Positions 34,901 through 40,465 of a stretch of DNA of 64,000 nt are shown here, in pieces. The translations under genes were made by a program, and so were the position numbers. Every line of letters begins with the position of its first letter. Position 1 is the stretch's first letter. The stretch comes from Candidatus Latescibacterota bacterium. Lineage in GTDB: Bacteria > Latescibacterota > UBA2968 > GCA-2709665. Where the stretch lies: assembly GCA_963667175.2 (NCBI GenBank), contig CAXXXF010000015.1:841913-905912 (forward strand), in the 5' to 3' direction. The notes under the pieces were generated by a model that saw nothing but the letters and a program-made list of their open reading frames with translations, had not been told where the DNA came from and did not search any database.

Positions 34901-36854
34901 CGGTGGGAGTCACATTGAAGTCTACAGAGCCTGTGCGTTGTTGGCCGAGTCACTGGCTGAGATCGGCCACGCTGAAGAGGCGCTTCAGTGGATTGACAAG
35001 GCACGGGCGGGGTCAGAAATAGACGGGAATACACGCGCCGCGGTTTTGACTGCAGAGGCTAAAGTGCTGGCAGCGCGAGGTAGGGATGTCGACGTAGACT
35101 TGCTATTTGAAAGGGCGTCTCAATCCCAGGATCCACGGAACGGTCTTGAGCACGTACGACTGCTTCTTTTCGCCGGATCATACTATCTGGACAACCGGCG
35201 TTTACCGGAGGCCCGGTTATACCTGGAGAATGCTCGATCGGCTGCTAAGGCGATAGGACTGAGCTATTTTTGTGTTAAGGCATCCAATATGCTTGAACTT
35301 ATCCCTGAGGAAGTCGAAAAGGGGCCAACCGTGACCGAACGCTCATCGGCGCTTTCTGAGAAGCATCTCGCGACGCTTTGTGACGTTTCGCAGGATTTAA
35401 CGTCTGAACTCGACTTGGATGTCCTATTGGACCGTGTTCTCGAGCGTTTGACAAAAGTCAGTGGAGCCGAACGCGTACTGATAACCCTTAAGGAACAGAC
35501 CGCGTTCGATGTTCAGGTTGCGCGCGCGCATAGAATCGAAGATTCGGCGACACGAGAGATTAGCCGAACCATTATAAAAAGGACGATCGCACGAAACGAG
35601 CCGATATTGAGCCTGGATGCAGGTGTCGACGAACGATTCGAGAAAGGAGATAGCATCGTGGACTTCGGCATCCGATCGGTGCTTTGTATTCCATTGCACC
35701 ATGCGGAGTCAGGCGTGATTGGCGCGCTGTATATGGACCATCGCGGGTTAGACCAAGTCTTCAACGAATCCGACATGTCGTTCATGTGCGCCTTCGGGAA
35801 TCTGGTGTCCATTGCGGTCGTCAACGCCTGGAAGTATTCTCAGGTATTGGAACGCGCTCTTTTCTTGGGAAAGCAAGTTGAAGATCGCTATCAGATGGAA
35901 GGATTAGTCGGAAGGAGCCAGCCGATACGGGACGTATTCAACCTGATTGAGCAGGCCGCTGATAGCGGGGCTACGGTATTGATTCAGGGCGAGACGGGGA
36001 CGGGTAAGGAGCTTGCTGCGCGGGCGATTCATTCCTCTGGTACAAGAAAGGACCGTTTGTTTCTATCCGCCAATTGCGCGGCGCTTTCACCGGAGCTTCT
36101 TCAAAGCGAATTGTTTGGCCACAAGAAAGGCGCATTCACTGGCGCGACAACCGACAGAAAGGGACTGTTTGAATCCGCCGACGGTGGTACGGTTCTCCTG
36201 GACGAAATCGGCGATGCGTCCCACGAGTTTCAGTCGAGCCTCCTGCGCGTGCTGCAGGAGGGTGAGTTCCAGCGGGTCGGCGAAACATTGGGGCGTCGCG
36301 CCAACGTGCGGGTAATTGCATCTACGAATCGCGATCTCGAGTCGGATGTACGAAATGGTCGGTTTCGCGAAGATTTGTACTATCGCCTCCGGGTATTGCA
36401 GATAGAGATGCCTCCGCTACGCAATCACATCGAGGATACCCCGTTGTTGGCAGAACAGATCCTGCGACGGGTTTGCGCCTCACACAAAAAAAGTGTCCCT
36501 GGCTTCACTGTTGGGGCCATGCGTGTTTTGATGGACCACAGGTGGCCGGGCAACGTGCGGGAGTTGGAAAACGAGATCACGCGCGCGGTCGCGCTAGTGG
36601 AAGAAGGAAAAGAAATCTCCGCAGGTTTATTCTCCGTGGGAATTGGGTTGCGACAGCAGTTGAAGGACGATACCCGGGGGTTATTCAAATCGCGTGTAGC
36701 CGCCTTTGAGAGGCGAATGATTATTGACGCACTCGACCAATCTGGCGGGAATATCACTCAAGCCGCCAATCAATTGGGGCTGAGCCGAAACGGACTTCAA
36801 AAAATGACAAAGCGGTTTGGTTTGAGGGCTGGAACTGAGAAAAAAAAGAAATGA
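31938..36854 (+). CDS. Ser/Thr kinase - AAA/STAND ATPase - TPR-like - GAF - sigma54 activator - Fis HTH fusion
   Basis: [101 protein letters not shown]. Start could be ATG 31962. Confidence 0.93.
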
Positions 36855-36991
36855 AGCGTATACAATGTAGGCAATATTTCGTATTTGTGATGCGGACCAC
36901 GTTGAATTCAGTCTTAGTTCTTGTTATTGAATGGTTTATATGCTTTTTCAGTCAACAACGCGTCTGAATTGTGCATACAATGTATACGCTT
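36854..36991. promoter_or_regulatory. Pair of inverted palindromic sites, candidate enhancer (UAS)
   Basis: aagcgtaTACAaTGTAggcaat (36854) and attgtgcaTACAaTGTAtacgctt (36968-36991) are near reverse complements, about 100-230 bp upstream of the sigma54 promoter. Confidence 0.65.
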
Positions 36992-37051
36992 GATGGGTAG
37001 GTAGACTCAGTAGGCGCAAAATCTGTATCGTTTTTAACATGTTGTTTTTAG

Positions 37052-38885: not shown

Positions 38886-38983
38886 TAGAGACCTGGAACA
38901 CGTAACCGTTTTCGACTAGACTGACAGTGTCGAATCCCAGGCGCCCCATCCACAAGCTTTGAAGACTCCACATCGTTCGAATA

Positions 38984-40465
38984 ATGAAACCAAAAATGAA
39001 CCCGGCATCACCACGTTACAGGAAAGAATGTCACATATTTGAAGCTGACGGACGAACCATTCTGTTCGACGTGGAAGGCATTCGCGCCTTCTACGTTAAC
39101 GACGTGGAACGCGAAATTATGGCCTTATGCGACGGCAGGAAAGCAAAAGAAATCATCAGCGCCCTGGGCGCCGTTTATCCCTCTGATCTTATTCACAACG
39201 CATTGGACCGCCTGAGCGAATTGGGACTAATGACCGACAGGTGTCACGAATCTGCTACGATCAGTGCTCCCGAACAGGTCGAAGTAACCCATCTAAATAT
39301 CGATTTGGCACACGATTGCGATATGGCATGCGGCTACTGTTACCTGGAGCCGATTCTTCAGCGGGAAAAACCAAGATATATGGACGAAAAAACCGCTTTA
39401 CGGGCGGTAGATTTCTTGATGGATGCATCTGGAGTATCAAAGACATTGTACATGAGCTTCTACGGTGGTGAACCGTTGTTGGCCGGCCCACTGTTAAAAC
39501 GAACGGTGGATTACGCAAACGAGCAAGCGGCTGCCCTTGAGAAAGATATCTTTTTTGATATCACCACAAATGGTTTGCAATTGAGGGAAAACACTGCCAG
39601 GGATCTCGCTAAGAGGGGTGTTTTCATTTCAGCAAGTATCGATGGAACCCAGGAAGTTCACGACGCTCTGCGAATAAAGGAGGAAGGGACAAATACGTAC
39701 TCCAGGGTCGTTGATGTCGTGCGCATGTTGGATCGCCTTTCTTTAAACGGCTTTGGACTTAGAGCTACGGCGACTGCACAGGATTTCGATTGGGCCGGAC
39801 AGCTTGCGCACCTCTTGAATCTAGCACCTACTGCCCACCAGGTCTATCTGGTACAAGCAGTGCTGCAACGGGACGATGCACGCGCTATTTCAGAACATCA
39901 CATTGCTGACGTCAAGGCCGCCCTGTCGGATATAAGATGGTTGATTCAGGATCATGTCTTGACAAATAACCCAACATGGATCGGCAAGTTAGAGGACGAT
40001 ATCTGGCAGATTGCGAATCAGAAGAAGAAACTCTATTCGTGCGGGGCAGGGGTCCGGAATCTGACGGTCTGTCCACAGGGCGACCTCTATACATGCTCTG
40101 GCCTCGTCGGTGATCTTTCTTTTAGAGTGGGTGACATCTTTGAAGGGATTGACGTCCAAAAACGAAAGCAGTGGATGATCGACCACATAGTGGGTGCAAC
40201 AGATCAAAGGGATTGGTCACGTTTTCTTTCCGGCGGGAGTTGCTACTTCCGCAGCTTCGTCCGAGACGGAGATACAAGGTCCGTTGACTTGATGGAGCGT
40301 GAAATTACCAATTATTCGCACGAACAGACTATCGCAACGTACTTGCAAATTGCCGAAAAGTCGCCCGGTATACTTGAGGCTCGGTACGATGCACCAAGTG
40401 AAACGAATCACGAAGTAAGTCTCGAATTACCTCACGAATGTATGCTTCATCGCGTCCACCGATAG
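38984..40465 (+). CDS. Radical SAM maturase 2 with degenerate SPASM domain
   Basis: RRE-like N-terminus, CDMACGYC, FYGGEPLL, ITTNG, SIDG, CGAG...GDLYTC; distal cysteines largely replaced. Confidence 0.88.
   Translation: MKPKMNPASPRYRKECHIFEADGRTILFDVEGIRAFYVNDVEREIMALCDGRKAKEIISALGAVYPSDLIHNALDRLSELGLMTDRCHESATISAPEQVEVTHLNIDLAHDCDMACGYCYLEPILQREKPRYMDEKTALRAVDFLMDASGVSKTLYMSFYGGEPLLAGPLLKRTVDYANEQAAALEKDIFFDITTNGLQLRENTARDLAKRGVFISASIDGTQEVHDALRIKEEGTNTYSRVVDVVRMLDRLSLNGFGLRATATAQDFDWAGQLAHLLNLAPTAHQVYLVQAVLQRDDARAISEHHIADVKAALSDIRWLIQDHVLTNNPTWIGKLEDDIWQIANQKKKLYSCGAGVRNLTVCPQGDLYTCSGLVGDLSFRVGDIFEGIDVQKRKQWMIDHIVGATDQRDWSRFLSGGSCYFRSFVRDGDTRSVDLMEREITNYSHEQTIATYLQIAEKSPGILEARYDAPSETNHEVSLELPHECMLHRVHR

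Follow-up and report, generated by a model that had tools for sequence, protein, structure and literature searches.

A 64-kb stretch of a Candidatus Latescibacterota genome (contig CAXXXF010000015.1, positions 841,913 to 905,912 of the forward strand; all 64,000 nucleotides are called the window below) carries a compact cassette in which a giant sigma-54 activator, a 75-aa peptide and a radical S-adenosylmethionine (rSAM) enzyme, rSAM1, follow one another. This most likely represents a new, ranthipeptide-like family among the ribosomally synthesized peptides with post-translational modification (RiPPs), one that depends on a RiPP recognition element (RRE): at a probability of roughly 0.7, the locus is a sigma-54-dependent RiPP-type operon in which rSAM1 would modify the peptide at C38, guided by its leader. 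An RRE-dependent rSAM/SPASM RiPP is a known type; what sets this variant apart is an unusual dedicated regulator. All genes from 31938 to 40465 lie on the + strand, in the order activator, a 356-nt intergenic region, the 75-aa open reading frame (ORF), rSAM1 and a second enzyme, rSAM2, with the following features:

31938-36854, + strand: 1638-aa activator with Ser/Thr kinase, AAA_16 (STAND-type NTPase), tetratricopeptide repeat (TPR), GAF, sigma-54 AAA+ and HTH_8 regions
36858-36872, unstranded: distal candidate upstream activator site, GTATACAATGTAGGC, a repeat with 36973-36987
36973-36987, unstranded: proximal candidate upstream activator site, GCATACAATGTATAC, some 108 bp 5' of the -24 box
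37050-37087, + strand: hairpin of 13 pairs plus T-run, intrinsic-terminator-like, directly 5' of the -24 box
37088-37102, + strand: sigma-54 (-24/-12) promoter, TGGTACGTTTGTTGC, with GG at 37089-90 and GC at 37101-02
37198-37204, + strand: Shine-Dalgarno sequence AAGGAGA, 6 nt 5' of the ATG at 37211
37211-37438, + strand: 75-aa precursor peptide ORF, ATG 37211
37419-38885, + strand: rSAM1, an RRE + radical SAM + SPASM maturase, conserved partner of the peptide
38984-40465, + strand: rSAM2, RRE + radical SAM + reduced SPASM, accessory paralogue

An earlier note on this DNA had proposed a promoter, an ORF led by a ribosome-binding site, enhancer candidates and two rSAM genes, and each of these is found where it had been placed. 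The conserved unit consists of the ~1600-aa activator, palindromic upstream sites, terminator hairpin, sigma-54 promoter, peptide and rSAM1, the whole amounting to three genes with some 350 bp of control DNA. With rSAM1 as query at E ≤ 1e-60, a phylum set of 168 genomes from 49 genera yields a homologue in 26 genomes and 7 genera. Relatives are labelled Gemmatimonadota or Candidatus Latescibacterota in match names and record titles, and a scan of wider contigs for rSAM1 loci gave two close loci together with 78 at 28-40% identity, mostly from Bacillota. Genomes of a second genus hold 1-3 full rSAM1 matches apiece, mostly two or three. Within the window, G+C is ~50% from about 26 kb onward vs ~60% before.

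A conserved small peptide and its partner enzyme

The 75-aa ORF is a real gene under purifying selection in its own frame. Its ratio of nonsynonymous to synonymous polymorphism (pN/pS) has a median of 0.53 in the window's genus, with pN below pS in 10/10 pairs, and of 0.47 in the second genus (136/136 pairs); the same DNA gives 0.87 and 0.81 in the shifted frames. A GGAG or GAGG lies within 15 nt 5' of the start in 25/25 related loci, and a small ORF with the family motifs stands just 5' of the enzyme in every locus that covers the enzyme N terminus and sufficient upstream DNA. Aligning 24 peptide homologues delineates a leader, L/F10-x-x-I13-N14 ... G21-x-I23, and a core in which C38 is followed by W-P-x-F-P-x-L-P-P-P; M1, N14, G21 and C38 are invariant, and L10, I23, P44, P47 and P49 are at least 90% conserved. 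The two-cysteine core that had been suggested does not survive this alignment, as C38 alone is invariant and C26 is replaced by Tyr or another residue in most relatives. What distinguishes a RiPP precursor is present: a small conserved ORF beside a maturase, with conserved leader and core. Many second-genus peptides contain G-G-C, which was considered as a double-glycine leader cleavage site and rejected, being neither family-wide nor accompanied by a C39-peptidase transporter nearby.

Searched with a profile of the family, the window's genome yields a single copy and the 168 phylum genomes 45 matches, spread over 21 of them. All but three of these stand 13-55 nt (one 314 nt) 5' of an rSAM1 match on the same strand, and the remaining three are on contigs of two fragmented assemblies without a listed enzyme match; with 42/45 thus adjoining an rSAM1 homologue, the idea that the small ORF is a conserved gene co-occurring with its maturase is borne out. 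Searching 1.84 billion representative proteins returned 23 matches at E ≤ 1e-3, 19 small and 4 long. The 18 small ones inspected all carry the family motifs, five only in their N-terminal part, and some C termini look frameshifted. The long proteins P0132, P0137, P0138 and P0143 (642-2689 aa) each hold 2-6 repeated matches to profile positions about 3-48, the leader-like part, which may reflect either a repeat with a like composition or real kinship. No Pfam or NCBIfam model matches the peptide, so the earlier note's description of the precursor as unrecognised holds with regard to curated families; ESM Atlas gave no usable match, and tblastn against plasmids gave none. The locus therefore defines a precursor family outside the curated libraries, with one invariant Cys and a Trp/Pro-rich core, in a largely uncultured phylum. 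In L022 (about 1235-1508) the peptide gene looks damaged, with leader and core in different frames, as does a copy at G085:C1:2814805-2814987 with an in-frame TGA; either assembly error or cassette decay could explain them.

rSAM1 starts at ATG 37419 or at GTG 37440, the latter implied by a 481-aa database entry. The peptide stop (37436-37438) overlaps the gene in the first reading and lies one base before the start in the second, so peptide and rSAM1 are translationally coupled. The enzyme has the hallmarks of a radical SAM/SPASM protein (CX9-15GX4C ... CX2CX5CX3C ... C; Pfam Radical_SAM, E 6.7e-13): C126, C130 and C133 of the CX3CX2C motif, SPASM cysteines 364, 382, 420, 423, 429, 433 and 452, and G377 are invariant in 31 sequences. 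The N termini of the two rSAMs give sub-threshold matches to Pfam PqqD (21.1 and 19.5 bits vs a cut-off of 23.4). AlphaFold2 predicts a beta3-alpha3 RRE-type fold for both, in agreement with the RRE-like N termini claimed earlier, and the RRE block has a predicted local distance difference test score (pLDDT) of 86-92 in the two models. In the rSAM1 model (overall pLDDT 86.8) the block comprises strands 16-20, 27-31 and 36-40 and helices 42-50, 56-62 and 69-81. A profile of the rSAM1 family aligns with CteB (5wgg) at E 2.5e-94 over residues 9-454, which spans the N-terminal RRE of CteB. Foldseek likewise ranks 5wgg_A first for the model (E 1.1e-32, template modelling (TM) score 0.74/0.81), followed by the anaerobic sulfatase-maturating enzyme anSME (E 5e-20), also the second-best solved relative by profile (E 1e-26). 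Predicted fold and N-terminal alignment with the CteB RRE both mark rSAM1 as an RRE-dependent maturase, for which leader binding is a model prediction.

That prediction comes from modelling the peptide together with rSAM1. The complex scored 0.66 and the best of three controls 0.00; by a rough calibration, 116 of 157 solved complexes attain this mark, as do 2 of 215 mismatched pairs, and at least 53% of contacts are shared between runs. Contacts with the lowest error link peptide residues 10-14 (L-x-x-I-N) with rSAM1 35-41 (strand beta3) and 78 (helix alpha3), which is how the leader of CteA is described as binding CteB (PMC8326336). C38 and rSAM1 365, beside the invariant C364, are both interface residues, listed singly and not as a contact pair. 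The leader thus appears to dock on the rSAM1 RRE in the model. A CteA-CteB-like complex has already been solved, so the passing score may reflect likeness and is not proof of binding by this particular pair.

Comparison with curated families places rSAM1 near several maturases. Its best NCBIfam models are QhpD (TIGR03906, 247.3 bits vs a cut-off of 453), the SCIFF maturase (TIGR03974, 245.7 vs 425), the nif11-type maturase (243 vs 518.7) and PapB (NF047865, 223.1 vs 340); rSAM2 reaches 194.9, 184.7 and 169.9 bits with the QhpD, SCIFF and PapB models. As rSAM1 is near these models yet under all their cut-offs, we assign it to the thioether-forming clade but to none of its named members. The maturase that partners the peptide family is of the CteB/QhpD clade and clears no equivalog threshold.

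With the CteB/SCIFF system (a thermocellin-type ranthipeptide) the cassette shares the enzyme layout of RRE, radical SAM and 7-Cys SPASM, a precursor gene directly 5' of the maturase gene, and the predicted leader docking on beta3/alpha3 (described for CteA in PMC8326336). The precursors differ: the peptide has one invariant Cys, whereas SCIFF has six in about 45 residues, and it lacks the C-x2-C-x3-C-x-S-A-C-K-T-S-C core. SCIFF systems are clostridial, whereas this peptide family occurs in metagenome-assembled genomes labelled Latescibacterota or Gemmatimonadota, and unlike CteB/SCIFF the cassette has a dedicated sigma-54 activator. The leader had been likened to the SCIFF type. A hydrophobic-x-x-[IL]-N-like stretch is indeed common to both, but a profile-profile comparison (hhalign) of the peptide family with 29 SCIFF peptides gives a probability of 0.15%, no relationship being found. 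The comparison set was drawn from the 78 distant loci, which yielded 40 distinct SCIFF-type sequences.

QhpD, nominally the best NCBIfam model (full-length over 37-491), is described as an rSAM/SPASM enzyme that forms thioethers in a small polypeptide containing Cys (PMC10114670). The proposed echo of its substrate QhpC in a GC...C-x-W-P motif finds no backing in the locus: no amine dehydrogenase, haem-c subunit or other quinohaemoprotein amine dehydrogenase (QHNDH) gene such as qhpA, qhpB or qhpC is among the 27 window ORFs scanned with Pfam, the QhpD model stays at 247 bits vs 453, and homology of the peptide to QhpC was not detected. The maturases of PapB/freyrasin and nif11 type belong to the same RRE-rSAM-SPASM thioether clade (223 and 243 bits). 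Repeated C-x3-D motifs and a Nif11-type leader are precursor traits of the PapB and nif11 families, and the peptide has neither.

Sigma-54 control and the giant activator

In line with the sigma-54-driven locus of the earlier note, the peptide is the first gene behind a conserved sigma-54 promoter and sits beside a sigma-54 activator. TGGTACG-N4-TTGC at 37088-37102 is the sole match to TGGYACGNNNNTTGC in the window, where 0.09 is expected; at least one match occurs in 9 of 100 shuffles. In 24/25 related loci a GG-N10-GC site (score 13-15 of 15) stands 45-186 nt 5' of the peptide ATG, and it falls in invariant alignment columns in both genera. The window's genome encodes rpoN (431 bits vs a cut-off of 277), and with the conserved GG-N10-GC and an adjacent sigma-54 AAA+ enhancer-binding protein the components of a sigma-54-dependent operon are all present. 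Further upstream, the two candidate activator sites form an imperfect inverted pair of GTATAC type. The proximal one reads GTATAC-N3/4-(G/A)TATAC-like and is aligned at the same place in 6/6 loci of the window's genus, the distal one being conserved less well; the enhancer candidates named earlier are retained on this footing as predicted sites. The palindrome TGTGTATACACA (37060-37071) was also considered as an enhancer and rejected, as it forms the loop region of the conserved terminator hairpin.

This hairpin is the strongest terminator-like site in 36700-41700, and hairpin and T-run are kept at the same position in both genera, with changes on both stem arms. It would serve as an insulator, terminating the transcript of the activator right ahead of the sigma-54 promoter. 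Rfam returned four matches on 36700-37600, all at or below 27.5 bits vs gathering scores of 41-60 and all on the hairpin; being sub-threshold and hairpin-driven, they leave no known RNA family to explain this region. Between 37438 and 40519 there is no terminator-like site of more than 7 pairs.

In the second genus, three palindromes fill the region equivalent to the proximal site, and their sequence varies with the helix-turn-helix (HTH) of the activator. Loci of TGCA type (GTGCA...TGCA) encode 'GLQKK' in 8/8 cases and those of TGTA type (GTGTA...TACA) 'GLHKK' or 'GLYKK' in 9/9, counts that overstate independence because the loci are related to each other. The palindromes stand about 150-330 nt 5' of the peptide ATG (L006-L020, L030, L031) and track Gln vs His/Tyr in the HTH. 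This co-variation suggests cognate activator-site pairs that would be mutually insulated.

The activator matches Pfam Pkinase (22-274), AAA_16 (311-471), TPR/TPR_MalT (762-1070), GAF (1159-1294), Sigma54_activat (1323-1490, E 7e-68) and HTH_8 (1588-1622, a Fis-type HTH). An ORF of 1590-1659 aa lies directly upstream on the same strand in 11/14 larger related loci, and 10 of the 11 upstream proteins scanned combine Pkinase, AAA_16, TPR and Sigma54_activat, the kinase part of the eleventh missing from the ORF as called; a more distant locus has a 1050-aa TPR-GAF-sigma-54-HTH form. The kinase/cyclase fusion regulator of thiazole/oxazole-modified microcin (TOMM) systems (TIGR03903) is comparable as a large RiPP-associated regulator with a Ser/Thr kinase and an AAA_16/TPR module, and activator residues 312-738 match this model at E 7e-78. 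The activator nevertheless scores 262.7 bits vs a cut-off of 705.75, and its output is GAF, sigma-54 AAA+ and HTH_8, not a cyclase. The cassette also ties RiPP production to a sigma-54 activator of 1600 aa (kinase/STAND/TPR/GAF) whose cis-elements are easy to read. In the literature we found no account of sigma-54 or enhancer-binding proteins with radical SAM RiPPs, nor of RiPPs of this phylum; a word search of the main text of PMC10288494 and PMC10114670 (reviews and a 2023 rSAM RiPP compendium, whose supplements could list such clusters) finds no mention of Latescibacteria or Gemmatimonadetes.

Proposed mechanism and competing explanations

We propose that the activator would bind the GTATAC-type candidate sites about 110 and 225 bp upstream of the promoter and, on some signal, open the sigma-54 promoter at 37088-37102, producing a transcript that would start about 100 nt before the strongly translated 75-aa precursor. 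Leader residues about 8-24 (L/F-x-x-I-N-[GA]-x-x-D-x-x-G-x-I) would dock as a beta-strand on beta3/alpha3 of the RRE, and rSAM1, presumably a three-cluster radical SAM/SPASM enzyme of the CteB/QhpD clade, would modify the core around the single invariant Cys38 (C-x-W-P-x-F-P-x-L-P-P-P). The likeliest reaction would link the Cys sulfur to a side-chain carbon of a residue close by, giving an intramolecular thioether, and rSAM2, a lineage-specific add-on, would probably make a second modification on the same peptide. What the analysis shows is that the genes are conserved and co-occur, together with the promoter, the RRE fold and the cluster motifs; activator-site binding, leader docking, the chemistry and the role of rSAM2 are what we infer from these comparisons. 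Enzyme clade membership and the invariant Cys point to ranthipeptide-like as a reasonable label. The system is small and directly testable in a heterologous host.

Several observations weigh against this proposal. Neither rSAM comes close to any NCBIfam equivalog cut-off. In the complex model the peptide folds poorly (pLDDT 44-50; partner at least 43), and the complex prediction used author-built alignments, for which the calibration counts hold only roughly. Activator-palindrome binding is argued from position, conservation and co-variation among non-independent loci. Across the neighbourhoods of related loci, neither a protease nor an exporter is conserved beside the cassette. Thioether acceptors in the characterised relatives described in PMC8326336 are Asp, Asn, Thr and Glu, and none of these is conserved within 5 residues downstream of C38 in the 24-homologue alignment; the conserved features downstream of C38 are a Trp/Phe and the P-x-L-P-x-P stretch. 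With no conserved acceptor of a known type near C38, the reaction may differ. Should the product be a thioether, its acceptor would be other than the Asp/Asn/Thr/Glu of the clade, widening the chemistry of ranthipeptide-type enzymes.

The same cassette and substrate could also host another chemistry, in which rSAM1 makes no Cys thioether; we consider this unlikely, though well worth keeping in view. Options are Cys oxidation (anSME-like, to formylglycine or thioaldehyde), a C-C/C-O cyclophane-type Trp/Phe link or epimerisation, with Cys38 only coordinating the open iron of the first auxiliary cluster. The lack of a conserved Asp/Asn/Thr/Glu acceptor, the aromatic residue after the Cys in most members and the rank of anSME as second-best solved relative all suit such a view. 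C-x-P-x-R is the sulfatase motif, which the cores of the window's genus (C-x-W-P-R/x-F) loosely resemble, but neither its Arg nor its C-to-P spacing is conserved across the family, and anSME has no RRE whereas rSAM1 has one. A further point in its favour is that in CteB a non-crosslinked substrate Cys is described as contacting the auxiliary cluster (PMC8326336). Against all these options, thioether formation is the activity of the three top NCBIfam models and of the closest structure alike.

Two further explanations give the peptide a role other than precursor of a secreted peptide product. It might be a regulatory or accessory subunit (an activator partner, an anti-activator or a scaffold of rSAM1), with rSAM1 acting elsewhere: the cassette is essentially regulator, peptide and enzyme, with no conserved protease or exporter, and P-x-L-P-x-P could be a protein-binding motif opposite an activator that has a long TPR region. 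We judge this improbable, as the gene lies 5' of an RRE-bearing rSAM/SPASM enzyme, leader/core-like conservation and an invariant Cys are typical of RiPP precursors, and the complex model sets the leader motif in the canonical RRE groove while controls stay at 0.00. Very little weight goes to the peptide being a precursor of a redox cofactor or enzyme subunit, by analogy with pyrroloquinoline quinone (PQQ), mycofactocin or QhpC, and not of a secreted product. QhpD as nominal best NCBIfam match would fit, as would a recurrent upstream family-2 glycosyltransferase (GT2) gene (mycofactocin glycosyltransferase model 57-67 bits vs a cut-off of 280) and a Redoxin, propeller and ApbE set found 3' of the cassette in the window and right behind rSAM1 in L036; but the GT2 matches are generic, downstream gene sets differ between loci, and neither a dehydrogenase partner nor a peptidase is conserved. 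The C-terminal tails of this peptide vary, whereas those of PQQ and mycofactocin precursors contain conserved residues.

A bolder extension of the RiPP operon reading, which we regard as speculative, is that the three-gene cassette is a self-contained peptide signalling circuit. The modified peptide or a fragment of it would be sensed by the TPR/STAND module of its own activator, possibly via a neighbouring family-5 peptide-binding protein, and the activator would then drive the peptide promoter; the modification could be an unprecedented Cys-Trp/Pro/Leu link. The second genus has two or three cassettes whose palindromes and HTH differ in step, as expected for mutually insulated channels.

rSAM2 and neighbouring genes

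rSAM2 is 28% identical to rSAM1 over the whole length (E 7e-49). Six relatives were found, at 79, 75 and 44-46% identity, and the two closest share contigs with the closest rSAM1 homologues. The enzyme is absent from L032, which is of the same genus and has the same downstream genes and an rSAM1 73% identical, and from all second-genus loci. The earlier view of a peptide served by two maturases accordingly gives way to one in which rSAM2 is a rare add-on. CX3CX2C and CX12GX4C are retained in 6/6 subfamily members; in the same 6/6, C-x2-C-x5-C has become D..D..S and the last Cys is gone, which leaves one Cys of the block. From its sequence this looks like a reduced, Twitch-like SPASM, with the radical SAM cluster site and the motif of the first auxiliary cluster retained but not that of the second. 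By the structures of anSME and CteB, the four missing Cys would be ligands of the second auxiliary cluster; their loss is shared even at 44% identity and so looks adaptive, not a sign of decay. The AlphaFold2 model (pLDDT 85.9) has a beta3-alpha3 N terminus and a disordered tail, 474-493. After a variable linker, the C-terminal tail ...HECMLHRVHR (about 40420-40462) is strongly conserved even at 44% overall identity, and could be a metal-binding, regulatory or self-substrate tail.

Other rSAM-like paralogues adjoin an rSAM1 homologue at L035:12211-13602, L042:5083-6483 (minus strand) and L043:10821-12287, and lack CX3CX2C, a defect opposite to that of rSAM2. The C-x2-C-x5-C-x3-C SPASM block is full in the L035 and L042 paralogues, and the L043 one keeps the first three Cys only; each is followed by a family-4 glycosyltransferase (GT4) gene. 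By their motifs they look like non-catalytic or cluster-only partners.

Around the cassette, three further genes on the + strand recur in related loci:

26978-28354, + strand: GT2 glycosyltransferase (Pfam Glycos_transf_2, E 5.5e-37), membership of the system uncertain
28373-30061, + strand: family-5 (peptide/nickel type) solute-binding protein (SBP_bac_5, E 1.4e-59), membership uncertain
40519-41502, + strand: GT4 glycosyltransferase (Pfam Glycos_transf_1, Glyco_transf_4), directly downstream of rSAM2, role in the system uncertain

The GT2 gene lies 5' of the activator in the window, L032, L033, L036, L039 and L040, and has only generic GT2 matches in NCBIfam, below cut-offs; its pairing with SBP_bac_5 at this position is shared by L032 and L036. 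In the window an IS110-family transposase gene (30058-31143, minus strand) sits between the SBP_bac_5 gene and the activator, which adjoin each other in L032 and L036. The GT4 gene, which may be co-transcribed with the cassette, is also found 3' of the rSAM gene or genes in L032, L035, L042 and L043. Its product in the window has 327 aa and covers Glycos_transf_1 positions 110-171 of 172, vs 389 aa and positions 14-172 for the L032 counterpart; the window copy may carry an internal deletion.

Upstream and downstream gene sets differ between related loci. Three loci have a 300-aa protein without assignment 3' of the cassette. Downstream genes are, by Pfam, a short sigma-54 activator and a UvrD-like helicase in L037, which ORFs of L041 and L045 match in size only; a propeller, AhpC and an ATP-binding cassette (ABC) exporter in L033; and Redoxin, propeller and ApbE in L036. 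A set of a 205-aa protein, a Redoxin/AhpC-type protein, an NHL/6-bladed propeller and ApbE occupies 46994-52809 of the window, 6.5 kb downstream; it is directly 3' of the rSAM1 homologue in L036 (11284-15102) and partly so in L033 (4109-7672). A functional link between this Redoxin/propeller/ApbE set and the cassette is possible.

Elsewhere in the window, an AcrB-type resistance-nodulation-division (RND) pump gene (54161-58692) is split by a Mutator-family transposase gene (55428-56714) into 54161-55345 (ACR_tran 1-394) and 56746-58692 (ACR_tran 390-1019), with an intact paralogue at 58689-61766. A pair of AbiEi antitoxin and AbiEii nucleotidyltransferase toxin genes (24461-25953) lies just before the drop in G+C near 26 kb, and a transfer-messenger RNA (tmRNA) gene at 13937-14296 encodes the tag peptide ADDTYAMAA.

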